Positions 24,744 to 58,239 of a stretch of 64,000 bases of DNA are shown here, piece after piece (positions within the stretch are counted from its first letter, which is position 1; every line of letters starts with the position of its first letter). The notes beneath the pieces were generated by a model that made no database searches, was not told the origin of the DNA, and saw nothing but the letters and a program-made list of their open reading frames with translations. Location of the stretch: contig CAYWEW010000004.1 of assembly GCA_964457775.1 (NCBI GenBank), positions 24,705-88,704 on the forward strand, in the 5' to 3' direction. The position numbers and the translations under genes were made by a program. This stretch comes from an uncultured Candidatus Saccharibacteria bacterium (lineage in GTDB: Bacteria > Patescibacteriota > Minisyncoccia > Phycocordibacterales > UBA5272).

Positions 24744-25748
24744 TTATTCCACAAAATTTACTTCTCTTTCTAATCGAATACCTGTATCTTGTTCTATCTT
24801 TTGTACAATCATTCCAGAAAATAAAATCACATCCTGATAAGTTGCATTCCCGTAATTCACAATTACAAGAGGTTGATTAGGCCATGTTCCGACATCGCCC
24901 ACGCGTACACCTTTCATTTGTGCTATATGTTCTATAAGCCAAGCTGCAGGAATTTTATATCCACCTTCAGTTTCATGAAGTGGAATGTCTTCATATTTAT
25001 TTCTTAATGATTCTCCTTTTTCTTTTGTAATTATAGGATTTTTAAAAAATGACCCCGTGTTCGGATAAACATTATAATCAGGTAATTTTTCTTTTCTAGT
25101 TTTGATAACAAGTTCTCTAACTTCTTTTGGGTTAATATTTTCTTTTCCAATTAAAATGTCTAATGGTTTATATGTAAGGATTGGATTTGAAATTTTTGAA
25201 AGTTTTATTGTAACAGAAGTAATCACATATCTCCCTTTCTCTTCTTTAAAAATTGAACTACGATAACCAAAATTGCACTGTTCATTTAATAATTCCATAA
25301 AATCATCTGTGACCGTGTCGTATACTCGTAAAGAAATAAGCGTGTCCTTCAATTCACTTCCGTATGCACCAATGTTTTGTACAGGGGCCGCCCCTACTGT
25401 ACCTGGAATGTATGATAGATTTTCTATTCCCCACCAATCTTTACTAACTACATAATCAACAATATCGTCCCATGTTTCACCTGCTCCAATTACAAGCAAA
25501 ACATTATTATCTGATTCCTTAACGTATGTTCCTTTTATTTCCATTTTCAAAAAAAGCACATTCTGAATTGTGTCATTAAAAAAAGAGTTAGTCCCTTCAC
25601 CCAAAACAGATACTTTTATATTACGAGCTTTTGCACATGAAAAAGCTTCACGAAGTTTTTCTTCAGTATCAACAACAACAAGATTTGCCTCACCTCCTAT
25701 ACGAAGTGAGGAGTAATCCTTCATTAATACTTTTTGTATATCTTTCAT
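24744..25748 (-). CDS. murB: UDP-N-acetylenolpyruvoylglucosamine reductase
   Basis: FAD-binding N-terminus, GSFFKNP and AAWLIE motifs. Confidence 0.85.
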   Translation of the reverse strand: MKDIQKVLMKDYSSLRIGGEANLVVVDTEEKLREAFSCAKARNIKVSVLGEGTNSFFNDTIQNVLFLKMEIKGTYVKESDNNVLLVIGAGETWDDIVDYVVSKDWWGIENLSYIPGTVGAAPVQNIGAYGSELKDTLISLRVYDTVTDDFMELLNEQCNFGYRSSIFKEEKGRYVITSVTIKLSKISNPILTYKPLDILIGKENINPKEVRELVIKTRKEKLPDYNVYPNTGSFFKNPIITKEKGESLRNKYEDIPLHETEGGYKIPAAWLIEHIAQMKGVRVGDVGTWPNQPLVIVNYGNATYQDVILFSGMIVQKIEQDTGIRLEREVNFVE

Positions 25749-25770
25749 TAATTACTTTGTAGTATATAAC

Positions 25771-25800
25771 AAAACCCGAATCAATTAATTCGGGCTTTGT
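25771..25800 (-). terminator. Rho-independent terminator between the tRNA locus and murB
   Basis: CCCGAAT-caattaa-ATTCGGG flanked by A- and T-runs (works on either strand). Confidence 0.5.
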
Positions 25801-25806
25801 TATTTT

Positions 25807-25903
25807 GTGCGCGGTCCTGGATTCGCCTCTCGCATTGCTATGCTCGAAACCTACGTCCTCTCTTCGAGGACTGCGGCCCGCGGTTCGAATCCAGGACCGC
25901 ATT
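25807..25903 (-). repeat. tRNA-trailing structured element, degenerate copy A
   Basis: 15-bp terminal inverted repeat GCGGTCCTGGATTCG...CGAATCCAGGACCGC (acceptor-like plus T-stem-like). Internal GTCCTC-tcttc-GAGGAC hairpin. Not a canonical tRNA. Confidence 0.4.
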
Positions 25904-25940
25904 AAAAATAAAAAGGTGGCAGGGGTCATTTTCATCATCT

Positions 25941-26068
25941 TTTTATTGCTGTGCGCGAACCAAGATTCGGTCACCTCGTCTCGTTTCAAGATTACTTGAA
26001 ACAGGAGACTCCTCGACCCCTATTCGAATCTTGATGGAAATGACGCAGGTCATTTCCTGTTCGCGCAC
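25941..26068 (-). repeat. tRNA-trailing structured element, copy B (downstream of tRNA-Ile)
   Basis: The acceptor strands GCGCGAA/TTCGCGC are identical to tRNA-Ile. H1 hairpin GGAAATGAC-CTGC-GTCATTTCC. P1 CAAGATTCG/CGAATCTTG encloses AATAGGGGTCGAGGAG and a TTTCAAG-taat-CTTGAAA hairpin. Confidence 0.55.
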
Positions 26069-26113
26069 AGAATACAAAAAGCTAAGGATACTTCCTTAGC
26101 TTTTTGTATTCTG

Positions 26114-26186
26114 TGCGCGAACCAAGATTCGAACTTGGGACCGCTCGAGTATCAGTCGAGTGCTCTACCAGCTGAGCTATTCGCGC
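26114..26186 (-). tRNA. tRNA-Ile (anticodon GAT)
   Basis: Manual fold. Acceptor GCGCGAA/TTCGCGC, D-arm GCTC-AGCTGGTA-GAGC, anticodon loop CTGATAC, T-arm CCAAG-TTCGAAT-CTTGG, discriminator A. Confidence 0.8.
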
Positions 26187-26341
26187 CTATTTTATTTTAC
26201 TACCTACACACTATGTGCACGTTTTAATATAAGCTACCAGCCGGGTCGTCCGTCTGCTGACTCCCTACATCTTCGAAGCCAAGCTTCTCGAGCTACCCAC
26301 GCTTATGTTACAAAATACTAACATAAAAAATAGCATAAGAA

Positions 26342-37770: not shown

Positions 37771-38697
37771 CTATTTGTCTGTCTTAACCTCCATCATCCT
37801 ACCGTCAGTCACAAAAGAAATACTTCCTCTGTCTATTGTGCTTATAATTTCTTTTGTGTATTTTTGTAATCTGTCAATCGTCTCTACATTCGGATGTCCG
37901 TACTTATTATTTTTTCCTGCACTCACGACTGTGTACTCGGGTTTGATGTAACTTAGCAACTGCTCTCCACTTGATGTCTTACTTCCATGATGCCCTACTT
38001 TGTACACTGTCACATTTTTTGGAAGCGCACCACTATCGAATAATTTATTTTCTTTTGCTGTTGGTAAGTCTCCAGTTAACAAAAAACTTTGTTCTCCGTA
38101 TGTGATGACCATACTCACTGATGCATCATTCGTATCATTTTTCTTTTCTTGATAATTTTTTTGTGGGTACAAAATTTGTGCAGTTACTCCATCATGAAAA
38201 TCAATCACATCTCCTGTACGTGCGACATACATATCTGCATGTTCGACATCGATATGTTTATCTAACTCACCAAAAACTTTTGTGTCACTATGTACTGGTG
38301 ATTCTATAATTGTATGTGCTTTATATTTTTCTAAAACTGGAATTAATCCAGTCACATGATCTGCATCCGGATGAGTTGCGACTATCACATCTATCTCACG
38401 ATCAAAGTATGACATTTCAGAATCTAGTCTAGATAAAATTATATTCGTCGGACCACCATCTATAAGCATTTGTTTTCCACTTGGAGTTTGTACAAAAATT
38501 GCATCACCTTGTCCAACATCGAGAAAAGAAACTTTGAGTTTTTGTGGTGTGATTAATTTGTATATCACAATTGCTGATATCAAAATAATAAATAATGAAA
38601 TGAAAACAAAAGTAACTTTTCCATAATTATGAATAAAATCTTTTGTGCTTTTTCTCACATTTTCTCTCCACTCATTCATATGATAATAGTAACACAA
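37771..38697 (-). CDS. ComEC C-terminal metallo-beta-lactamase domain protein (split comEC, part 2)
   Basis: FLDVGQGDAIFVQTPSGKQMLIDGG..., HPDADHVTGL. Confidence 0.6.
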   Translation of the reverse strand: MCYYYHMNEWRENVRKSTKDFIHNYGKVTFVFISLFIILISAIVIYKLITPQKLKVSFLDVGQGDAIFVQTPSGKQMLIDGGPTNIILSRLDSEMSYFDREIDVIVATHPDADHVTGLIPVLEKYKAHTIIESPVHSDTKVFGELDKHIDVEHADMYVARTGDVIDFHDGVTAQILYPQKNYQEKKNDTNDASVSMVITYGEQSFLLTGDLPTAKENKLFDSGALPKNVTVYKVGHHGSKTSSGEQLLSYIKPEYTVVSAGKNNKYGHPNVETIDRLQKYTKEIISTIDRGSISFVTDGRMMEVKTDK

Positions 38698-39368: not shown

Positions 39369-40925
39369 TCAGTAGGAAATTATGTCGGTGAGATTTCCAT
39401 TCTCTCTTGTTGCACGCGTTTCATTATTATATTTTCTTAAAATTAATATCATTAGAATAGAAACGAAAAGATAAATAAAACACATCGTTTTAAATGAAAC
39501 GTTAAGCATAACTGTCGAGTAAGGAAATAATTCTATTGTTCTTGCTACCCATATCATGACCCCAATTAGTACTGAATCTATGTATCCAATAAGTAGTGAT
39601 AATGTGTGTGAAATGTATGAAAAAAATACAACCAAGAATGAGAACAACATCGCAATTGGTACAAATGGAACGACAAGCACATTCGCTATGAGGGCGTACA
39701 CTGACACTGTCCCGAAGGTGTACATAACATAAGGCAATGTCGCGAAGTAGGCAGACAAGGTAGTAATGAAGAGTTCTCTTAAAGAGAGTGGCGACACGTA
39801 AGAGAAATATTTTTGAAATAACAATGTAAGTGGTTCACTCATATACACCAATCCAACCGTTGCGAGAAACGAGAGATGAAGTGATACATCGTGCATGAGC
39901 GCATATGGTTCATACATCACAATTATAAATAACGAAATTATCAAAGCTTGCTTCGCTACATATTGACGACCGACCAACATTGCGAGTAACGCGATGAACG
40001 CCATCAGAGTTGCACGTATAACACTCGGACTACCCCCTACCATAATTACAAAAAGTACTACTGAAATTGAAGCGAACACAATACGCAAAGTAAGTGGAAG
40101 AAACGCGAGTGCAAACAAAATAGAAGCAATTACAATTACTATATTGAAACCAGAAAGAACCACAATGTGAGATAGTCCTGCAGAACGAAATGTCTGAGTT
40201 AATTCTTTGGACATTGATGATGCTCCGAACAACATCCCGCTTGCAAGTGATGACGCGGGTGATGAAACATAAGTATCAATTCTTGTAGTTAAATTTTCTT
40301 TCAGACGACCCAACACATCTCTTATAGCATGAGCCTCACTATCAATCCCCTCCACACGGGGGTACATCATTTCACTTCCAATATTTTTGGTCAGTAAGTA
40401 TGAAGCGTAATCAAATCCTTTTTCTTTGATCTCGTTATGAGAATAAATAATTTTTGGAACAGTAACTTTTCCAGAAAGTTTGAGCGTCTCGCCTATTTCA
40501 TATTTTGGATAAAGCGGTGTGCGAACTTCTACCGCAAGTGCTTCAACATCTTTGACAATCGGCTCTACTGAAAAAATTTGATACTCATTTTTTGTCTCTG
40601 GTGATGTAACAATTACAGCATTGAATGTACAACTACTCTCACATACAAAATTATTTTTCTCCTCAACTAATTGTACACGGATGATTCCGATAAATAGTCC
40701 GAGACAAAAAAGTGAAGTGACGAGCGGAAAAGGAAAATGATGAAGGATGTCGAAGATGTCCTTCATCATTTTTCTTTTCCGCTCCCAACCATACAACCCC
40801 AACTGTATCACCCCGAGCACCACTGCTAGCACCCCCACCTCACTTCCATACACAGACATCTCTCCAATCACAATTCCTAACAATGCTCCGACTACGAATA
40901 TAACTGTCTTTGCATGTGTTGTCAT
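39369..40925 (-). CDS. ComEC/Rec2 N-terminal membrane 'Competence' domain protein (split comEC, part 1)
   Basis: SVIRATLMAFIALLAMLVGR...LHLSFLATVGL competence-domain signature. Confidence 0.6.
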   Translation of the reverse strand: MTTHAKTVIFVVGALLGIVIGEMSVYGSEVGVLAVVLGVIQLGLYGWERKRKMMKDIFDILHHFPFPLVTSLFCLGLFIGIIRVQLVEEKNNFVCESSCTFNAVIVTSPETKNEYQIFSVEPIVKDVEALAVEVRTPLYPKYEIGETLKLSGKVTVPKIIYSHNEIKEKGFDYASYLLTKNIGSEMMYPRVEGIDSEAHAIRDVLGRLKENLTTRIDTYVSSPASSLASGMLFGASSMSKELTQTFRSAGLSHIVVLSGFNIVIVIASILFALAFLPLTLRIVFASISVVLFVIMVGGSPSVIRATLMAFIALLAMLVGRQYVAKQALIISLFIIVMYEPYALMHDVSLHLSFLATVGLVYMSEPLTLLFQKYFSYVSPLSLRELFITTLSAYFATLPYVMYTFGTVSVYALIANVLVVPFVPIAMLFSFLVVFFSYISHTLSLLIGYIDSVLIGVMIWVARTIELFPYSTVMLNVSFKTMCFIYLFVSILMILILRKYNNETRATRENGNLTDIISY

Positions 40926-40934
40926 ATACAGACC

Positions 40935-41441
40935 TTAGACTTGAAAAAAGTAATCCTTTTTCGGCCCTCTATATAATTGCAAATCATTCGCATCATCTGC
41001 GCACATCGTTGCTATAGTATCTGCTCTTTCATTCATTGTTATTCCCACATGAGCTTGTACATATGTCCACACAACTTTTATACCTTCTCCTTTCAATCTA
41101 TCTTCTTCTTTTTTCAACATCTCCCACAAGTCTTGATTGAGTACTGGCTTCTTGGTTGACCCTTTCCACCCCTTTCTAATCCATCCATCTATCCATTCAG
41201 TCATTCCCTTTTTCACATACTGACTATCGGTACACACTTCCACTTCTTTAACTTTTGTCGCACTTATATCTATTTCTTTTAGTCCATGTATCGCGCCCAA
41301 CAATTCCATTCTGTTATTCGTGGTCAAATTTTCTCTCCCCCCTAGCTCCATAACCCCATCCTCTGTCATCACTATTGCTGACCATCCACCTGGACCAGGA
41401 TTCCCCCTTGAACTTCCATCAGTATAAATCTTAATTTTCAT
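40935..41441 (-). CDS. rnhA: ribonuclease HI
   Basis: IYTDGSSRGNPGPGGW, TNNRMEL, D/E catalytic set. Confidence 0.85.
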   Translation of the reverse strand: MKIKIYTDGSSRGNPGPGGWSAIVMTEDGVMELGGRENLTTNNRMELLGAIHGLKEIDISATKVKEVEVCTDSQYVKKGMTEWIDGWIRKGWKGSTKKPVLNQDLWEMLKKEEDRLKGEGIKVVWTYVQAHVGITMNERADTIATMCADDANDLQLYRGPKKDYFFQV

Positions 41442-49706: not shown

Positions 49707-51212
49707 CTACTTAACTTTGAATTGCTTACGTATTTCTTTAATTTGTTCTTTGTTTTTCTCTTCCATCTCTTCTTTTCCTGCTTTGCCTAGCAATCTGAGC
49801 TCAATATCTGATAATTTAATCAATTCTAGTGCGCGTTTATCTAGATATTCTTCAGTATTTTTCTCTGGATTATCAAGCACTTCGTCGAATAATGCATGTA
49901 AAACAAAGCCAATCTTCGGCCCAGCCGTTTCTTGTGTAACGTCCATGATTCGTTTCCCGTCAGTTTTTAGCATTTTTAGTGTAACTGGATCCTGTATCGC
50001 TTGTTCTACCATTGATTCATACATTCTCAGTCTATATGGCTCTTCTTTTGGCCTTCCAGTGCCCACTCTGTCGCAAATGCGTAGATTGATCAAATCCCAT
50101 ATATTATCCTTGCCTACGTTCGTAATTAGGCGTCTAACAGCTGATATAGTTATCTGCTCAGTGTCGGAAAAGAACATATGCCAACGCACGAACATGGACA
50201 CTCTGTCTGTCATCTCTTTTGGAAACTTTAGTCGCTCCAATATTTCACGTGAAACACGCCCACCAACAACATCGTGGCCATAAAATGTATAATCTCCTTT
50301 CTCTTTTGAGAAACGGCGTGTTTCTGGCTTGGAAATGTCGTGTAACACTGCTGACAAACGTATATGTAACGGCCACTTCTTATCAGCGGCATGCTGTAAT
50401 GTGCGAAGATTGTGCTCCCAAACATCGAAACTGTGAGCCTGATTCTGCATAACCCCTATTCCACGCTCTAATTCTGGCACCACATATTTCAAAATATCCA
50501 CGTCTTTCATGATAACAATACCCCTCATCGGGAAATCAGTCATCAAAAGCTTGATAAATTCATCTTTTATCCTTTCACATGAAACGTTTCGCAAAAGATG
50601 GGCGTTTCTCTCGATACTTTCACGTGTAACGCTATCAATATCAAAGTCCAATTGGCTCATAAGTCTAATTCCTCTCATAAGTCGTAAAGCATCTTCGTTG
50701 AAACGCACATCTGGATTGCCGACCGCTCTTATGATTTTCTTTTGTATATCTAACTGTCCTTCGAAAGGATCGATTATTTCTCCAGTCATTGGATTGTAGG
50801 CAATGGCGTTACACGTGAAATCTCGACGCTTCAAATCATCTTCTATGTCCTTGCTCCACTTCACTTCATCTGGATGTCTGTTGTCAGAATATGTGGTTTC
50901 TAAACGATATGGTGTAACTTCAACAATCTTAACCGTTTCATCACTGCAAGCGGGTAAATTCTCCTCCCCACAAGTGACAACCCCTACGGTGCCATAAGTA
51001 TTTTCATAAAAAGTCTTTGGAAATAAGGCGATTATTTCCTCTGGGGTGGCGTTTGTTGTAATATCAAAATCTTTTGGTTTATTCCCCATAATTAAATCAC
51101 GAACACAGCCACCAACAAGAAACGCTTCGAATGAGGCGTTTTGAAGCACAGCAAGTACCATTGTTACTTCTTTTGGTATTCCTGTCCCTATTTTTTGCTG
51201 TATTTGTGTCAT
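49707..51212 (-). CDS. cca: CCA-adding tRNA nucleotidyltransferase with HD domain
   Basis: GGCVRDLIMG..DFDITT polymerase-beta head. HD motif HSFDVWEH...LLHDISK. Confidence 0.8.
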   Translation of the reverse strand: MTQIQQKIGTGIPKEVTMVLAVLQNASFEAFLVGGCVRDLIMGNKPKDFDITTNATPEEIIALFPKTFYENTYGTVGVVTCGEENLPACSDETVKIVEVTPYRLETTYSDNRHPDEVKWSKDIEDDLKRRDFTCNAIAYNPMTGEIIDPFEGQLDIQKKIIRAVGNPDVRFNEDALRLMRGIRLMSQLDFDIDSVTRESIERNAHLLRNVSCERIKDEFIKLLMTDFPMRGIVIMKDVDILKYVVPELERGIGVMQNQAHSFDVWEHNLRTLQHAADKKWPLHIRLSAVLHDISKPETRRFSKEKGDYTFYGHDVVGGRVSREILERLKFPKEMTDRVSMFVRWHMFFSDTEQITISAVRRLITNVGKDNIWDLINLRICDRVGTGRPKEEPYRLRMYESMVEQAIQDPVTLKMLKTDGKRIMDVTQETAGPKIGFVLHALFDEVLDNPEKNTEEYLDKRALELIKLSDIELRLLGKAGKEEMEEKNKEQIKEIRKQFKVK

Positions 51213-51242
51213 AGATTGTGTTAATATACCCTTTGTAAATAA

Positions 51243-51314
51243 GCTTCCGTAGTGAAATGGATATCACAACGGTCTTCGGAACCGTCGTTCTGGGTTCGAA
51301 TCCTAGCGGAAGCA
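51243..51314 (+). tRNA. tRNA-Arg (anticodon TCG)
   Basis: Manual fold. Acceptor GCTTCCG/CGGAAGC, anticodon loop CTTCGGA, T-arm CTGGG-TTCGAAT-CCTAG. Confidence 0.75.
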
Positions 51315-51520
51315 CAAAAATGTGAGTGAAACGAGTATTTTTGTGCTTCCGCAGAAAGTGACCTGCGTCACTTTCGTTAGGATTCGAATGAAAAACCGGT
51401 ACACGAGATTCGCGGAGCGAATACTTGTCGGTTTTTCCGGGGTAGCGAAACAATATTTTTATCGAGTCCGTAGGACGAGCTGAAAAATATATGTTTGGTG
51501 ACCGAGTCCTAGCAAATCCC
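51315..51520 (+). repeat. tRNA-trailing structured element, copy C (after tRNA-Arg)
   Basis: Inverted repeat GGAAGCACAAAAAT...TATTTTTGTGCTTCC regenerates the tRNA 3' end. H1 GAAAGTGAC-CTGC-GTCACTTTC. GGATTCGAATGAAAAACCGGTACAC. CTTGTCGGTTTTTCCGGGGTAGCGA. GGTGACCGAGTCC. Confidence 0.5.
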
Positions 51521-51964
51521 TACCCCTCCCAAATTGTACCACCCTCCCTCATTTTATTTAGTGACTACTCCACTTTCTTCGTTCCCTGTTTTTATAAATT
51601 GCTGTGACTGCAATTACGGCCATTACTCCAAGTAGAATATAAATTATTCTTAATGATGAAGTTTTAATGTATGTTTTTCCTGGTCCACAAGCAGAACTAG
51701 GTGTTTTGTTTGTATGAATAAGTGTGTACTCATCTATGTTTGTGTAAACTGGACCAAGTAAATTAGTCTTAATTATCAAGTCTTTTGCTTCAAACTTCAT
51801 TGGTGGTAATAATGATGGGGAGCATGCACTAGCAACGTTTATTTGAAGAAGTATTAAGGACAATATAATTAATGGTGATATTACTTTATGGGACATGGTT
51901 ATTTATAAATAATAACACATAATACGCTTTGTTGTAGAACGTTTTACGGAGAATCGGTCACCAC

Positions 51965-52171
51965 TACGGCTCGCTTTAAAAAGCTTTGCTTTTCTCATCT
52001 CGCACGTAGTCGCGACCCCGGGAAAAACCGACAAGCAATTCATTCAAAAAATTAATGACCCCTATTTTTTGATTGAATTCTTGTGTACCGGTTTTTCGTT
52101 CGATTCTCCACAGACATGTCGCAGGTCATGTCTTTACACCACACAAAATACTCACTACGTTCCTATTTTAG
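51965..52171 (-). repeat. tRNA-trailing structured element, copy G (after tRNA-Gly-GCC)
   Basis: Collinear with copy C. H1 AGACATGAC-CTGC-GACATGTCT. GGAGAATCGAACGAAAAACCGGTACAC. AATAGGGGTC. CTTGTCGGTTTTTCCCGGGGTCGCGAC. Confidence 0.5.
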
Positions 52172-52242
52172 TGCGGCGTAGGAGAATCGAACTCCTGTCT
52201 CAACCTTGGCAAGGTCGTGTTCTACCACTAAACCAACACCGC
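52172..52242 (-). tRNA. tRNA-Gly (anticodon GCC)
   Basis: Manual fold. Acceptor GCGGTGT/ACGCCGC, anticodon loop TTGCCAA, T-arm AGGAG-TTCGATT-CTCCT. Confidence 0.75.
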
Positions 52243-52550
52243 ATTGAGAGCAATTGTAACACGACAAAAGCATAATGAAAAGATGTGATTCTAAGAAAGC
52301 GTTATATACTAAACACTAGGCGTTTCTTGTGAAAAGGTCATGTTGACAACATATAGAAATCTGGGGATAAACCTGTGAGTAGTGGGTATAACGGACATAC
52401 AAATTACTCTAGGTCAAATCAATTATGCTATGGCCTTTATACCAAAAAAGACTTGTTAAATATAGGTTTTTTAAGGTCAGAGACTTTTAATTAGACAAAT
52501 AAAATAAGGACATCTGTTTCACGTGAAACGAATCAAATATATAGTAAATT

Positions 52551-52940
52551 ATGGCAGAACATAATGAAATTGGAAAAATTGGAGAGAATATAACAAAAAC
52601 GTTTCTTATGAAACACGGTTTTTCTGTTGTTGATATAAACTATAGGACCAAATATGGGGAAATTGACATTATAGCTAAAAAAGACAACGTAGTTAGATTT
52701 GTTGAGGTTAAGAGTGTGAAAGTCAGAGACTTTGAGAGTATTAGTAACTTGGCAGTGAAGCCAGAGGACAATTTAACAAATGACAAATGGTCAAAACTTG
52801 TTGTTTCATGCGAAACGTATTTGAAACATAAAAATATTTCACATGAAACTAAATGGCAGATTGATCTTGCTTGTGTTTATATTAATACTGAAATAAGGGA
52901 GGGGAAGGTGGTGTTGATGGAGAATGTGAGTAGGGGGTAA
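52551..52940 (+). CDS. yraN: YraN/UPF0102 family endonuclease-like protein
   Basis: GENITKTFLMKHGFSVVDINYRTKYGEIDIIAKKDNVVRFVEVKS. Confidence 0.6.
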   Translation: MAEHNEIGKIGENITKTFLMKHGFSVVDINYRTKYGEIDIIAKKDNVVRFVEVKSVKVRDFESISNLAVKPEDNLTNDKWSKLVVSCETYLKHKNISHETKWQIDLACVYINTEIREGKVVLMENVSRG

Positions 52941-53018
52941 TGAAAGTTTGATTGATTACTATAACTACATGCATATTTCAGAATATATGCTAGAATGTTC
53001 AATACGTTTACTTAATAT

Positions 53019-53091
53019 CGGAATGTGGTGTAACGGCTAACATCCCTGGTTTGGGACCAGGTGACTCCGGGTTCGAATCCCGGCATTCCGA
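53019..53091 (+). tRNA. tRNA-Pro (anticodon TGG)
   Basis: Manual fold. Acceptor CGGAATG/CATTCCG, anticodon loop TTTGGGA, T-arm CCGGG-TTCGAAT-CCCGG. Confidence 0.75.
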
Positions 53092-53245
53092 CAAATTGTA
53101 AAATCACACTTGTAATCAAGTGTGATTTTACTTTGGAGGATGCAGTGAGTGAACTGCTTCACTCACGTCGGCGATTCGAATAGGGGTCGCGAGAGCTATA
53201 TTTCGAGCACGCGAGAAATAGACCTTGTGACCGAATCCCGGCATG
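53092..53245 (+). repeat. tRNA-trailing structured element, copy D (after tRNA-Pro)
   Basis: Hairpin AAAATCACACTTG-taatc-AAGTGTGATTTT. H1 GTGAGTGAA-CTGC-TTCACTCAC. P1 GATTCG/CGAATC encloses AATAGGGGTCG. The 3' end CCGAATCCCGGCAT copies the tRNA-Pro T-stem/acceptor. Confidence 0.5.
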
Positions 53246-53266
53246 ACTATATGCTAAACTTGATTA

Positions 53267-53497
53267 ATGAATACACCACAAACAGGGGAGATATGGCAAC
53301 ATTATAAAACGAAAGGGGAATATGAAATTATTGGTCTTGGTCAACTACAAACAAAAGTAGAGTCTCTTGATATGAAAGAGTGTGTTATTTATAAATCACC
53401 AGCTGGCACACTGTGGGCACGACCACTGGCTGATTTTGTAGAAGATATTAAGAATGAAGAAGGGGAGATGACACCAAGATTTAAAAAAGTAAGATAA
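53267..53497 (+). CDS. DUF1653-like small protein
   Basis: GEIWQHYKTKGEYEIIG...LWARPLADF pattern. Confidence 0.45.
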   Translation: MNTPQTGEIWQHYKTKGEYEIIGLGQLQTKVESLDMKECVIYKSPAGTLWARPLADFVEDIKNEEGEMTPRFKKVR

Positions 53498-53512
53498 AAG
53501 AAAAAGACGTCG

Positions 53513-54076
53513 TTAGACGTCTTTTGCAAGAAGGTATTTCAAGCAATCTTCACAATATGGGGATTCTCTTTTGTATCTGGAAGAGGCTCTTTTAGTCCAT
53601 ATCGAATCAGACTCATCTTCACTCATTACACAATTGTTTAGGCAGTGACCTGTGCCGTTAGTACTAATACTTAGTCGGGCGCGATGCTTATTTATTAAAC
53701 CCATTGAATGACCCAGCTCGTGCAGGATTAAGTCCCAAACTTTTGCAGACCATTTCATGGAGTTGTTTCTAGGAATATCTTTTACGCCTATCACACACCT
53801 GTCGGGTAATGATAGGCCAAAAACTCTTTTTCTTCTCCACGTTAGATTCGCATTAACAATATAAAAGGTAAAACCTTTACAAAACATATGTACTTTTCTT
53901 TGAAAAATTACTGATGTTGGTACTGTTTCCCTTTCAGAAAGAATGGAGAGATCTTCATTTGACTCAACTGAGTACGTTACGTCAGTGAATATTTTTCTCA
54001 AATCTCTGACAACTCTGCGAATAACCTTGTTTGTGCCGTGTGGGACGAATGGATCTAAAACGAAACGAATGTACAT
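53513..54076 (-). CDS. archaemetzincin-like zinc metalloprotease (M54-type)
   Basis: HELGHSMGLINKH plus GHCLNNCVM and CEDC cysteine cluster. Confidence 0.55.
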   Translation of the reverse strand: MYIRFVLDPFVPHGTNKVIRRVVRDLRKIFTDVTYSVESNEDLSILSERETVPTSVIFQRKVHMFCKGFTFYIVNANLTWRRKRVFGLSLPDRCVIGVKDIPRNNSMKWSAKVWDLILHELGHSMGLINKHRARLSISTNGTGHCLNNCVMSEDESDSIWTKRASSRYKRESPYCEDCLKYLLAKDV

Positions 54077-54174
54077 GATACCCTCCCTTTATTGTTTCTA
54101 TTAATATACTATCAGAATTTTATACTAATCAAAACTAGAAAAGTCTAATCAAATATGATAGGATATATTTCACA

Positions 54175-54245
54175 AGCGGTGTTGGTTTAGTGGTAGAATG
54201 CCTGCCTTCCAAGCAGGAGACAAGAGTTCGATTCTCTTACGCCGC
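54175..54245 (+). tRNA. tRNA-Gly (anticodon TCC)
   Basis: Manual fold. Acceptor GCGGTGT/ACGCCGC, anticodon loop CTTCCAA, T-arm AAGAG-TTCGATT-CTCTT. Confidence 0.75.
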
Positions 54246-54442
54246 ACAGAAATATAAAATCCTGAAACAAATTGTTTCAGGATTTTATATTTCTGTGCGG
54301 CGTAAGCAAGACAACTGCTTGTCTTGCATAGAGAATCGAATAGGGGTCGAGGAGCCATTTGTTTCTTGTAATCAAGAAACTGGCGAGGTGACCGATTCTC
54401 TTGAAGACTTATTTGTCGGTTTTTCCCGAGGTCGCGACTAGG
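54246..54442 (+). repeat. tRNA-trailing structured element, copy E (after tRNA-Gly-TCC)
   Basis: 30-bp inverted repeat regenerating the tRNA 3' end. H1 GCAAGACAA-CTGC-TTGTCTTGC. P1 AGAGAATCG/CGATTCTCT encloses AATAGGGGTCGAGGAG and TTTCTTG-taat-CAAGAAA. TTTGTCGGTTTTTCCCGAGGTCGCGAC. Confidence 0.55.
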
Positions 54443-54575
54443 AGTGTTTTGTGAATAACAAAGTTATGAAACAAAACACTCAAAGTAATGACCGATTCTC
54501 TTACAATCGTTTGTCCAATTCTGTATTTCTTTATATAATACCCAAAGAAGTTCAACTACCCCCAAGGAGAAAATC

Positions 54576-54821
54576 ATGCCGTGCGAATGCAAGTGCCAAT
54601 GTTCTTGTCATCATAAGGATATTCCTTTTTCGGAGATGTCGAAAGCAGATCAAGCAAAACTGAAGAGGGAAGCAGGTTACGGTTTATCAAGAAAGCTTTT
54701 GGGTAAAGAGAGTCTGGCTCATCGTGAAAAACTAGACCACTCTCTATCATTAGATGAATCAAGAAGAAGACAAACACAGCGAGCTTTTGAAGCCTTTAAC
54801 GATAGTTTCGGCAAAGGATAA
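54576..54821 (+). CDS. small protein with Cys-rich N-terminus (MPCECKCQCSCHH)
   Basis: AAGGAGAAAATC RBS. Terminator at 54836-54868. Confidence 0.4.
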   Translation: MPCECKCQCSCHHKDIPFSEMSKADQAKLKREAGYGLSRKLLGKESLAHREKLDHSLSLDESRRRQTQRAFEAFNDSFGKG

Positions 54822-54981
54822 AAAATAGAAAAACAAAAACCCCGAGCAAACTTTCTGCTTGGGGGTTTTACTTATCACTCTATGAAAAATAACTATGTGC
54901 ATATAGTTGCTAATTTTATATTTAAAGAGTGATATTATTATATAAGATACTTAACTGCTCTTTAATTTAAGGAGAGATGTC

Positions 54982-55338
54982 ATGAAGCTTGTAAAATTTG
55001 ACAGTGTGAAGAAAGATGAATTCCAACTAGTAAGATTAAACAAGCTTTTGAGTCACTTTCTCAAGATGATTGGTGATGTTGACGCAAGAATACAATCAAC
55101 TGAAACAGAGGAGACTGAAAGAATCATTCTGGAAGAAGATAAGAAGTTTTTCTTGGAGGAATATTCCAAGACCAAAGAAGAGTTGGATCTCATGCTCCAC
55201 AATCTTGGTCTGGATAGACGGGGTGACTGGATACTTTGGAGGGGGAGGTTGCGCAGGGGTCTGAAGGTAATTTCTGGTAATAGGGGAGTTGGAATAACCA
55301 ACCGAGTTGAGAGTTGTCTTAAGTTGGTGCAAAAATAA
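54982..55338 (+). CDS. hypothetical protein (118 aa)
   Basis: TAAGGAGAG RBS. Perfect palindromic terminator at 55342-55372. Confidence 0.4.
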   Translation: MKLVKFDSVKKDEFQLVRLNKLLSHFLKMIGDVDARIQSTETEETERIILEEDKKFFLEEYSKTKEELDLMLHNLGLDRRGDWILWRGRLRRGLKVISGNRGVGITNRVESCLKLVQK

Positions 55339-55393
55339 TAAAAGGTGCGATCATAGTCTATGATCGCACCTTAATATTTATATATTTAATATA

Positions 55394-55855
55394 CTACTTC
55401 AAGTATTCAATCACTTCCTTTGCATGTTCCTTTGGCTTCACCTCTTCATATATCTTTTTTATTTTACCCGTCTTGTCTATTAAAAAAGATTGTCTAAGTA
55501 CACCCATATATTCGCGGCCCATAAACTTTTTCTTTGCCCATACACCATATAACTCACACACTTTATGATCAGTGTCAGATAATAAAGTGAAAGGAAGTTT
55601 ATACTTTGTTTTGAATTTATTATGTGACTTGTTGTTATCAGGGGAGATACCTAATACAACCAAGCCTAGCTTCTCCATCTCTTTGTAATTATCTCTTATC
55701 TCACAAGCTTCTGTGGTGCAACCTGGTGTATCATCTTTTGGATAAAAATAAATTAAAACTTCTTTACCTAGGAAATCTGACAACTTATAATCTTTGTTAT
55801 CATCCCCGAGCAATTTAAAATCTGGTGCTTTATCTTTTTCTTGTAATTTTTTCAT
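55394..55855 (-). CDS. bcp: thiol peroxidase Bcp (peroxiredoxin)
   Basis: APDFKL..., FYPKDDTPGCTTEAC. Confidence 0.8.
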   Translation of the reverse strand: MKKLQEKDKAPDFKLLGDDNKDYKLSDFLGKEVLIYFYPKDDTPGCTTEACEIRDNYKEMEKLGLVVLGISPDNNKSHNKFKTKYKLPFTLLSDTDHKVCELYGVWAKKKFMGREYMGVLRQSFLIDKTGKIKKIYEEVKPKEHAKEVIEYLK

Positions 55856-55961
55856 AGGTTCATTATATACCCAACAAAACAACAAAACAAAAACAAGGCC
55901 GAAGGCCTTGTTTTTGTTTTAAGAATTAAGTATCAGTAAAGACTGACTTATTTACTTCAAA

Positions 55962-56234
55962 CTATTCAACTGCATCCTTAAGAGCCTTTGCTGCTGAGAA
56001 CTTTGGCACTTTCTTTGCTGGAACCTTAACTGTTTCACCAGTCTTTGGGTTACGAGCTTCACGAGCCTTACGTAGCTTTACTGAGAATTTTCCTACACCA
56101 GCAATAGCTACCTCATCTCCCTTAGAAAGAGTTTTAACGATTGTACCGAAAACTGCTTCTACTACTTCTTCTGCTTGCACTTTTGTTGAGCCAAGTACTG
56201 CGTGTACTGCTTCAATAAGACCTGCTTTGTTCAT
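55962..56234 (-). CDS. hup: DNA-binding protein HU
   Basis: MNKAGLIEAV...GFGKF-like arm RNPKTGETVKVPAKKVPKF. Start trimmed to the canonical Met. Confidence 0.8.
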   Translation of the reverse strand: MNKAGLIEAVHAVLGSTKVQAEEVVEAVFGTIVKTLSKGDEVAIAGVGKFSVKLRKAREARNPKTGETVKVPAKKVPKFSAAKALKDAVE

Positions 56235-57696: not shown

Positions 57697-58239
57697 ATGA
57701 TCACCAGAATCAAGAAGTCGCTGGCTTATGTCCCAGCGTCGCTTTTGGAAGCCACCAGCTTCCTCGTCTCCATCGGTCAGAAGCAACGCGAGATTAATCG
57801 TCTCAAGCGTGAAGCCAAACAAAAAGTGGAGGCGATCAATCTCGCTACCAAGAAGTCGGTCGATGAACTGACAAAAGAACGTGATACGTTCTTCACGGCT
57901 CTGTTCGCCTTCGCTTCTCCAAGGAAGGCTGAGCTGACGAAGGTCACCCGTTCGCAAAAAACGAACGCTGGAACCTTCGGTTGGCGCTTCACCACTCCTT
58001 ATGTCGATATCGCAGAAGGCAAAAGCGATCAAGACATAATCGCAACACTGAAGAAAGCTGGTCTCACTGACTACATCCGCGTCATCGAAGAAGTTGACCG
58101 CGAGGCAATGCTTCGTGATCGTCCGGAAGTGAAAGGTGTTTCCTATTCCAATCGTGACGAATTCTTTGCCAAGCCCAAGCTTGCAAAAGAAGATGGTCGT
58201 GCAGAAGAGCTCGTCAAAACCGAAGCGATTGATGTTTAA
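57697..58239 (+). CDS. Mu Gam-like host-nuclease inhibitor / DNA-end-binding protein
   Basis: AYVP, IGQKQREINRLKRE, FGWRFTTPYVDI...LKKAGLTDYIRVIEEVDREAML are collinear with phage Mu Gam. About 50% GC. Confidence 0.6.
   Translation: MITRIKKSLAYVPASLLEATSFLVSIGQKQREINRLKREAKQKVEAINLATKKSVDELTKERDTFFTALFAFASPRKAELTKVTRSQKTNAGTFGWRFTTPYVDIAEGKSDQDIIATLKKAGLTDYIRVIEEVDREAMLRDRPEVKGVSYSNRDEFFAKPKLAKEDGRAEELVKTEAIDV

Follow-up and report, generated by a model that had tools for sequence, protein, structure and literature searches.

Behind all five transfer RNA (tRNA) genes of the window, which denotes the whole analyzed stretch of 64,000 nucleotides (contig CAYWEW010000004.1, positions 24,705 to 88,704), small non-coding elements were found that follow one modular plan and lie on the same strand as the respective tRNA. 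Taken as a whole, these elements are best explained, with moderate confidence, as modular non-coding tRNA-trailer repeats that occur across the Paceibacteria and the candidate phyla radiation (CPR), resemble the RtT repeats of E. coli in their design, carry arms copied from the local tRNA and are probably active as read-through RNA. In the following, the elements are termed copy A (behind tRNA-Arg(UCG)), copy B (tRNA-Ile(GAU)), copy C (tRNA-Gly(GCC)), copy D (tRNA-Pro(UGG)) and copy E (tRNA-Gly(UCC)), while related loci are numbered with the prefix L.

Each unit can be described starting from X1, which comprises the last ~20 nt of the tRNA gene from C56 of the T-loop to the discriminator base and a few trailer bases. 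The parts located 3' of X1 follow in the order hairpin 1, A', H1, T', core and T2 or X2. Hairpin 1 resembles a terminator in some copies and is an A/U stem with GA-rich tip in others, and A' represents the acceptor 3' strand and the trailer in reverse complement, so that X1, hairpin 1 and A' form a single long palindrome, which is perfect over 33 bp in copies B and E. H1 is a hairpin of 7-9 bp with a CUGC loop. T' is complementary to tRNA positions 54-65, i.e. to the 3' half of the T-loop and the 3' strand of the T-stem, while T2 or X2 is a direct copy of X1 and thus of the tRNA 3' end; T' and T2 together close the core hairpin. Altogether, A' and T' comprise an antisense copy (X') of the last ~10-21 nt of the tRNA gene, which is usually split by H1.

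Two core types are present in the window. The type-1 core of copies B, D and E consists of AAUAGGGGUCG, a hairpin and (C)GAGGUGAC or YUGUGAC and has a length of ~50 nt; a rare variant of it is common to B and E, although their tRNAs differ and lie 28 kb apart. The type-2 core of copies A and C corresponds to the 3' half of type 1 preceded by an added hairpin (GAAAAACCGG...CGGUUUUUC). Across the family at least five core types were distinguished, the lengths of which cluster at 48-58, 68-75, 86-95 and 141-149 nt. Hairpin 1 and many of the cores share a GA-rich tip (CGAG-C-GAA-G-CGAG, GUGAAAC or GCAAAGC), as can be seen at 51322-51336 and 53205-53212 of the window and in many relatives. This tip contains the motif GCGAAGC, an unusually stable DNA mini-hairpin; the cores of the E. 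coli RtT repeats contain GGGCGAAGCGCGC too. A further mini-hairpin, GATTAGYAAATC, is nested in cores of several element types at ten Paceibacteria loci (L196:599, L197:9767, L201:8554, L214:8653, L219:9569, L225:8465, L235:5905 and 7339, L303, L310 and L312) and at no position of the window, and has the appearance of one more small insertion module.

The original prediction, made from the sequence of the window, had described a conserved core inside stems that co-vary with the neighbouring tRNA. The underlying motifs were all found again. The core motif AATAGGGGTCG occurs exactly three times in the window, at 26014-26024 (minus strand), 53179-53189 (plus strand) and 54339-54349 (plus strand), each time 3' of a tRNA on the same strand, and a copy with one mismatch is located at 52056-52066 (minus strand). 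The outer stems are AGAGAATCG/CGATTCTCT in copy E and CAAGATTCG/CGAATCTTG in copy B, the small hairpins with a taat loop are TTTCTTG/CAAGAAA in E and TTTCAAG/CTTGAAA in B, and the three H1 stems GCAAGACAA, GTGAGTGAA and GGAAATGAC each carry a CTGC loop. As claimed, the 3' strand of the outer stem copies the upstream tRNA from C56 on, over 21 of 21 nt in B (including 3 trailer nt), 13 nt in D and 10 nt in E. Not contained in the prediction were A', the hairpin linking A' with the real tRNA 3' end, copies A and C, a second module behind copy E and an orphan copy F.

While the arms do track the tRNA, the cause has to be described differently. The match between arms and tRNA is an inverted and a direct copy of the 3' end of the gene, and not compensation within an independent RNA, since trailer bases that do not belong to the tRNA are reproduced in the arms as well; in L314 the direct repeat comprises 45 nt and reaches the loop of the tRNA terminator. 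At the 284 positions where X2 and the tRNA disagree, the bases of the antisense arms fit the real tRNA in 241 cases and X2 in 72. This holds true for T' (40/46 versus 16/46) as well as for A' (201/238 versus 56/238). In about three quarters of the copies (in the window A, C, D and E) the acceptor half of X2 has become random, while T2 is retained. Accordingly, it is the true acceptor 3' strand to which A' stays complementary, and not the decaying acceptor half of X2; an acceptor-like stem of the element's own is present in B and about one quarter of the copies, the acceptor part of X2 being degenerate in the rest. A complete X2 was also observed in L241 (Arg), L303 (Thr) and L295 (Val). In the predicted lowest-energy fold of tRNA plus element, X1 pairs with X' in all five window copies at the cost of the T and acceptor stems of the tRNA.

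Covariation within H1 and the core was confirmed by structural alignments. For 14 type-1 copies, RNAalifold gave 33 consensus pairs, 22 of which show double compensatory changes. In an alignment of 40 sequences, 93.9% of the cells were paired compared to 75.7% in shuffled alignments, none of the 500 shuffles reached the observed value, and sliding the partners reduced pairing to 35-45%. All nine pairs of H1 showed double compensatory changes with 98.3% of the cells paired, and T' and T2 were paired in 90.7% of the cells. The foot of the core contains a G.U pair in 40 of 40 sequences at one position and in 30 of 40 at another, and an invariant bulge (GAWUCGAAUAGGGGUCG) adjoins this foot. Furthermore, in 49 of 51 copies a more stable fold was obtained for the tRNA-sense strand than for the opposite strand (mean of -46.9 versus -38.2 kcal/mol), and among the wobbles of the arms G.T (30) outnumbers A.C (11). 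Covariation, invariant G.U pairs and the better folding of the sense strand show that selection acts on a single-stranded form of tRNA sense. Compared to single-stranded DNA, RNA is the simpler reading for this active form. A consensus terminator scan did not call the palindromes, but is uninformative in this respect, as it counts A/T tracts as stem.

The linkage to tRNAs extends beyond the window. A structural scan for a CTGC-loop hairpin followed by TCGRA in the window and 80 related loci (1.24 Mb) resulted in 53 matches, of which 44 follow a same-strand tRNA at a distance of 37-68 nt; the others comprise four second units of arrays and five false positives. With T' counted as present at a pairing of at least 9/10, it was found behind 72 of 125 tRNAs (58%) in the closer clade and behind 25 of 102 in a more distant one, while 43 of the 125 tRNA 3' flanks in the closer clade were empty. 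A metagenome scan with a 19-nt type-1 motif returned 40 loci with ~28 true elements. These are located behind tRNAs for Trp, Arg (GCG, UCU, CCU, UCG), Ser, Gly, Val, Ile, Thr, Glu and Pro, and their arms fit the local tRNA in each case. In total, at least 14 tRNA isoacceptors carry the family in metagenomes. Elements unlinked to tRNAs, which had been named as an observation that would speak for a simple repeat family, do occur to some extent: besides orphan copy F, seven metagenomic loci (six distinct copies of the ~28, L294 being identical to L296) lack an intact tRNA directly 5' on the element strand. In L277 and L294, the loci of this kind that were examined, a remnant of X1 is kept. Scans of viral contigs with the 14-mers TCGAATAGGGGTCG and TTGTCGGTTTTTCC gave chance matches only, none of them extending beyond 18-21 nt, and literature searches on CPR tRNA trailers, tRNA-linked repeats and miniature integrative elements yielded nothing relevant.

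A comparison of related loci showed that the family behaves as a modular repeat, which is insertion-polymorphic and occurs in tandem. The spacer between the convergent genes for tRNA-Gly(GCC) and tRNA-Arg varies from 10 to 1171 nt among relatives. In L235, an extra type-3 unit is inserted between tRNA-Gly(GCC) and the type-1 unit, which directly follows the tRNA in L219 and L224; this extra unit is tRNA-proximal and bounded on both sides by TCTCCTACGCCGCAC(AGAAA). Between tRNA-Gly(UCC) and tRNA-Pro, L198 contains only a shared terminator, while in L214 a full unit and X2 precede the terminator. Compared to the closest relative L196, the homology of the window spans tRNA-Arg, hairpin 1, A', H1 and T' and ends at the core. 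At the tRNA-Gly(GCC) site the window carries a type-2 core and L196 a type-1 core, and the tRNA-Pro segment is inverted between the two. Cores of 48 nt are identical behind tRNAs for Trp, Val, Ser, Arg and Gly, whereas the respective hairpin 1 and H1 are unrelated. In L276, T' contains the Gly-type AATCG although its tRNA has a TTCGAAT loop, which points to a recombination break in the T-loop-derived segment common to all units. In addition, the unit behind tRNA-Glu in L305 (2731-2900) carries an A' (TGTGACC) that equals the conserved core end TGTGACC, with a second H1-T' directly after the first core. This suggests a tandem duplication via recombination between the two TGTGACC segments.

Neither distant copies of X, up to 8 kb away, nor a larger autonomous version were found, from which it follows that all units are smaller than ~450 nt. 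A Pfam scan of the window covered 50 open reading frames (ORFs), comprising 48 of the 51 with at least 150 aa and two shorter ones, and revealed no transposase, integrase or reverse transcriptase domain. Several possible origins of the units were considered and rejected. An empty scaffold that existed before insertion of the core was not supported, as none of 99 cases was a core-less scaffold. Priming from the mature tRNA, comparable to a primer-binding site, does not agree with arms that match genomic trailer bases (ACAG and alike) and not CCA. An origin of the arms as direct copies from the 5' strand or T arm of the tRNA is contradicted by A', which has the Watson-Crick complement where the tRNA has U5.G68, and by the Gly-type T', which reads AATCG and not TTCGA. 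Finally, a circular rod including hairpin 1 is not the mobile unit, because hairpin 1 is particular to each locus, whereas the same cores recur at different loci.

Based on these observations, the favoured explanation can be specified as follows. The arms are copies of the local tRNA 3' end that are made or maintained at the DNA level during gain, loss and exchange of units, as shown by the insertion polymorphism, the tandem arrays, the shuffling of modules and the breakpoints inside TCGAA/CGAAT segments. The active form would be a single-stranded nucleic acid of tRNA sense, most likely RNA from read-through of the tRNA gene, which is predicted to fold as three consecutive hairpins, namely the tRNA 3' end paired with A', H1, and the core closed by T' and T2. 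The invariant purine bulge together with the G.U-containing foot looks like a recognition site for a protein or nuclease. Since the copied tRNA 3' end supplies a tRNA-like end, the trailer may be handled by the tRNA end-processing machinery, as reported for RtT, and T2 could prevent T' from invading the T arm of the tRNA. Recombination between tRNA flanks would probably account for spread and homogenisation, in an organism presumably capable of natural transformation (ComEC), and the units would be dispensable for any single tRNA.

Several points weigh against this explanation. G.T wobbles and GCGAAGC-type tips suit DNA hairpins as well, and the active form may be single-stranded DNA instead of RNA. 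Read-through may be rare, because copies B, D and E are located behind a seemingly efficient intrinsic terminator. According to the folding predictions, the pairing of X1 with X' would sequester the T and acceptor 3' strands of the tRNA and would be harmful unless processing is fast. The explanation does not account for how the antisense copy is templated for each new tRNA, and no core-less scaffold was seen. The resemblance to RtT may be convergent, since the RtT covariance model gives no score. Finally, the conservation of A' next to a decayed X2 acceptor half points to a role of pairing with the real tRNA, which a passive trailer does not explain.

In a different reading, which is improbable in our view, the elements would be tRNA-specific cis-antisense devices, in which A' and T', arranged around H1 like the paired guide arms of a three-way-junction guide RNA, pair with the tRNA 3' half of the same transcript, while T2 serves as competitor and the core with its invariant G.U pairs and bulge as a switch that binds a protein or ligand. 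If true, individual tRNAs would have their maturation (or destruction) governed by the trailers of their own genes, and the same logic would explain RtT in E. coli. A host regulatory version of this, in which A' and T' reversibly sequester the tRNA 3' half, T2 acts as decoy and the core senses a protein or ligand in order to tune the maturation of individual tRNAs, seems even less probable. The X1:X' pairing in each of the five copies folded, the maintained complementarity of A', the conserved T':T2 pairing and the invariant bulge and G.U pairs are consistent with such a device, and distinct core types could mean different inputs. Yet the elements are absent at the empty flanks of the closer clade mentioned above and at whole orthologous sites, the core type at the same tRNA differs between species, and copies pile up in tandem and decay, which is typical of selfish repeats rather than regulators; a ligand or protein candidate is also lacking. 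For the free-standing alternative, a tRNA-like small RNA from A' to X2 that is cut by RNase P and RNase Z, receives CCA from the enzyme encoded nearby and acts as a tRNA mimic, there is likewise only a small chance. The element had been described as a tRNA-like shadow, which is true for its tRNA-derived arms and for complete copies such as B and L224 (Gly-GCC), which fold as an acceptor-like stem of 7-12 bp, H1 as body and a T-stem with the core in place of the loop. In addition to the complete X2 of three further loci, the position of H1 at the junction where D and anticodon arms would emerge, the gene for the CCA-adding enzyme adjoining the tRNA cluster, an encoded RNase Z-like metallo-beta-lactamase and the ACCACCA end of E. 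coli RtT are in line with it. However, the shadow is usually incomplete, because about three quarters of the copies have a degenerate acceptor half of X2, so that in A, C, D and E the acceptor stem cannot form. Since A' fits the real tRNA far better than X2, a tRNA-like RNA is only partly supported. Moreover, cloverleaf features are absent, the rod replaces the T-loop that RNase P and the CCA enzyme need to measure the elbow, and tRNA, tmRNA and other Rfam models gave no signal.

Miniature or decayed integrative elements, mobilized as small circles by a recombinase acting in trans with the tRNA 3' end (T-loop sublocation) as att core, would account for the direct repeats flanking the units, the tandem arrays with the extra unit next to the tRNA, the presence/absence differences between relatives and the continuous rod that results when a unit is closed at X. 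The internal antisense copy would then fold single-stranded DNA into a mimic of the tDNA site, like the CTXphi attP hairpin or integron attC, with which the strand-specific folding with G.T pairs would agree. Nonetheless, we consider this origin unlikely. Besides the absence of an integrase among the 50 window ORFs scanned and the locus-specific hairpin 1 next to identical cores, the right-hand limit of the duplication varies from 10 to 45 nt, unlike an att core, a different pair of att and anti-att would be needed for each of the at least 14 tRNAs, and the R''/R' consensus of attC is absent. Related to the cis-antisense reading, a mobile element of RNA or single-stranded DNA whose guide arms are templated anew on each tRNA that it targets is conceivable as well. 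Compared to these alternatives, the tRNA-trailer repeats remain the preferred explanation. They would explain the large and fast-changing intergenic spacers and the local inversions around CPR tRNA clusters, identify a source of false 'partial tRNA' or att-site calls in CPR genomes, and provide testable hypotheses on the processing and regulation of tRNA 3' trailers in CPR bacteria.

The individual copies differ in how completely they follow the plan. Copy B (minus strand) is the most complete one. Its hairpin 1 (26071-26110) is a perfect terminator-like palindrome with A-tract and T-tract that runs on into the pairing of X1 and A', followed by A' (CTGTGCGCGAAC, 26059-26070), which is the reverse complement of the acceptor 3' strand, the discriminator and 3 trailer nt. 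H1 (26036-26057) comprises 9 bp with a CUGC loop, and T' (CAAGATTCGAA, 26023-26033) is complementary to tRNA positions 54-64. The type-1 core (25970-26022) contains a TAGGGG bulge, a GUCG/UGAC foot with G.U, a purine internal loop and the taat-loop hairpin, and X2 (25949-25969), identical to the tRNA-Ile 3' end over its full 21 nt, is the sole complete one in the window. Orphan copy F (25808-25900, minus strand) consists of a contiguous X' (GCGGTCCTGGATTCGAA), a core of 58 nt and X2 (CGAATCCAGGACCGCGCA) without H1 and has a fold z-score of -3.8. A matching tRNA was found neither adjacent to it in the window nor in any locus checked.

Copy E (54248-54403, plus strand) starts with the 33-bp palindrome, which includes the tRNA acceptor 3' strand and A' (54248-54306), followed by H1 (54306-54327), T' (54330-54340), the type-1 core (54341-54392) and T2 (CGATTCTCTTG, 54393-54403). 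The second module behind it (54413-54504, plus strand) is 5'-truncated and comprises the 3' half of a type-2 core (TTGTCGGTTTTTCCCGAGGTCGCGACTA, hairpin, AATGAC) and a third copy of CGATTCTCTTAC. In copy D (53098-53244, plus strand) a terminator-like hairpin (53098-53131) precedes a degenerate A' (53132-53144), H1 (53145-53166), a T' with one bulged C (53167-53180), the type-1 core (53181-53231) and X2 (CGAATCCCGGCAT, 53232-53244). The two type-2 copies are longer. Copy A (51316-51513, plus strand) begins with an AU stem with GA-rich tip loop up to 51343 and continues with A' (51344-51352), H1 (51354-51375), T' (51377-51388), the core (51389-51502) and T2 (CGAGTCCTAGC, 51503-51513), the acceptor part of X2 being decayed. 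Copy C (51947-52170, minus strand) comprises hairpin 1 (52144-52170), A' (UGUGGUGUA, 52135-52143), which pairs with the tRNA via two G.U wobbles, H1 (52112-52133), T' (52099-52110), the core (51957-52098) and T2 (51947-51956).

The five tRNA genes of the window were determined by ARAGORN together with Rfam RF00005, and CCA is encoded in none of them. The gene for tRNA-Ile(GAU) is located at 26113-26186 (minus strand; ARAGORN and RF00005), its last 21 nt from C56 to the discriminator plus 3 nt representing X1 of copy B. The other four, called by ARAGORN, provide X1 of the remaining copies: tRNA-Arg(UCG) at 51243-51315 (plus strand) for A, tRNA-Gly(GCC) at 52171-52242 (minus strand) for C, tRNA-Pro(UGG) at 53019-53092 (plus strand) for D and tRNA-Gly(UCC) at 54176-54247 (plus strand) for E. 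Together with cca, these four form a cluster (49707-54247) that is conserved across Paceibacteria (L196-L275). Within this cluster, the order and orientation of tRNA-Pro and tRNA-Gly(UCC) flip from species to species, and the inverted tRNA-derived repeats may be behind these inversions. A 14-nt palindrome, GTTAYAYRTRTAAC (mostly GTTACAYRTGTAAC), was observed 26 times in 23 loci (L196-L241) and is absent from the window. It lies between tRNA-Gly(GCC) and tRNA-Arg (for example L198:3517, L199:9660 and L209:9613), in 17 loci of the closer clade in the spacer 3' of the tRNA-trailer elements, and may be a protein-binding site or part of a promoter.

The window represents a bacterial chromosome of the CPR (Patescibacteria/Paceibacteria) and not a phage, because MurB, ribosomal protein S7, RecJ, DinB, RNase Y, ClpP and ComEC were identified by Pfam, in addition to RNase H and the CCA-adding enzyme. 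A phage origin had been considered due to the many tRNAs, but a megablast of 50000-56000 against phages was empty, the Pfam gene set is bacterial and the relatives are Paceibacteria metagenome-assembled genomes (MAGs). In a species-level genome collection, the nearest loci belong to MAGs of Paceibacteria/"Nomurabacteria", with an identity of the CCA enzyme of up to 93%. In the window this enzyme is encoded at 49707-51212, and an exact lookup of its protein sequence yielded no record. Directly 5' of tRNA-Pro, a protein of the UPF0102/YraN family (predicted PD-(D/E)XK-type nuclease family) is encoded at 52551-52940 (plus strand) and at the same place in L196. Two small ORFs lie between copies D and E. 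The one at 53513-54076 (minus strand, 187 aa) gave only a sub-threshold match to Peptidase_M54 (archaemetzincin-like), and the other at 53267-53497 (plus strand, 76 aa) is without annotation and kept in L196 in inverted orientation. Further genes code for a metallo-beta-lactamase-fold protein of RNase Z-like size (37771-38697, minus strand), ComEC (39369-40925, minus strand), RNase H (40935-41441, minus strand) and a Mu Gam-like protein (57697-58239, plus strand). Of these, the metallo-beta-lactamase-fold protein bears on tRNA 3' processing, ComEC on DNA uptake and the Mu Gam-like protein on end protection.

Among the known families, none of the Rfam covariance models matched any of the core types. 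HDV-like/theta, hammerhead, twister, pistol and hatchet ribozymes gave no match at E<=10, the only hits being chance matches of miRNA type to long hairpins. A group I intron is equally without Rfam match, and the units follow an intact tRNA with type-1 cores of only ~50 nt. ARAGORN and RF00005 call a cloverleaf only for the five true tRNAs, while the element has one body hairpin and a core of 50-145 nt in place of the T-loop; a tmRNA was not found in the window by ARAGORN or Rfam. Plant mitochondrial t-elements and mascRNA of MALAT1 likewise present an acceptor/T-stem-like helix 3' of or in a transcript that could recruit tRNA end-processing enzymes. Their elbow has stayed T-loop-like, they are not known to be copied from an adjacent tRNA, and the mascRNA model gave only a chance-level match inside tRNA-Arg.

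Intergenic repeats such as REP/REPIN, ERIC, BOX, Correia and miniature inverted-repeat transposable elements (MITEs) are similar to the elements described here as small, non-coding, imperfect palindromes in many copies with presence/absence polymorphism and hairpin-keeping covariation, and BOX shows a modular composition as well. These repeats have family-wide conserved ends and are not known to be tied to one gene class. In contrast, the outer arms of the CPR elements are re-made from the adjacent tRNA, which also sets their orientation, terminal inverted repeats beyond the hairpin itself are missing, and no RAYT or transposase was found among the window ORFs scanned. The duplicated stretch of ~10-45 nt is moreover not of fixed length as in a MITE. 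With regard to REP/REPIN-RAYT and IS200/IS605 PATE, a conserved hairpin foot is present, and a Y1_Tnp domain was not detected among the scanned ORFs of the window. With attL/attR and CIME-like remnants the elements share the direct repeat of the tRNA 3' end from the T-loop on and the tandem accretion beside the tRNA; they differ from these remnants by their small, gene-less units of 130-300 nt, the added inverted copy and the variable repeat length. A recombinase gene in or near the elements was not found among the 50 ORFs scanned. Read from the sequence, the arms ..ATTCGAA and GACCGAAT.. fit neither the R'' (RYYYAAC) nor the R' (GTTRRRY) box of integron attC.

By design, the closest known relative is RtT, even though the covariance model is not shared: RF00391 gave no match even at E<=10 in 51200-54600 and 25700-26300 of the window and in L202, while the positive control (E. 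coli, L316) gave four matches with 133-138 bits. In E. coli MG1655, three units spaced by 178 nt follow tyrV, and the fourth Rfam RtT copy lies between tyrT and tyrV. Each unit ends in AATCCTTCCCCCACCACCA, which corresponds to the last 19 nt of tRNA-Tyr from the T-loop to CCA (ACCACCA), and a 10-nt antisense segment (GGGGAAGGAT) is located ~100 nt upstream of this direct copy, both closing a core rich in CGAG/GCGAAG. Like the CPR elements, RtT is located 3' of a tRNA on the same strand, occurs in tandem and combines a repeated tRNA 3' end with an antisense counterpart inside the unit; the two close the fold, and in the read-through form the antisense segment can also pair with the real tRNA. 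Unlike the CPR elements, it has neither H1 nor an anti-acceptor palindrome directly next to the tRNA, and the encoded CCA forms part of its copied stretch. In the tests performed here, RtT was found only behind the two E. coli tRNA-Tyr genes, whereas the CPR family spans at least 14 isoacceptors and five or more core types in a whole class of bacteria. That the repeats of the tyrT operon give rise to a product, rttR, has been shown by experiment (PMC3318445, citing Bosl & Kersten 1991; bioRxiv 10.1101/2024.07.17.603846). It is said to act in the processing of the tyrT transcript and possibly in the stringent response, its mode of action being described as unknown (bioRxiv 10.1101/2024.07.17.603846). 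In the literature, RtT is described as a stable processed RNA. RtT has long been a little-studied feature of the tyrT operon, and its design is now met in an unrelated phylum with reduced genomes. Several core types and dozens of covarying sequences make the single case of E. coli part of a broad class that is amenable to comparative study.

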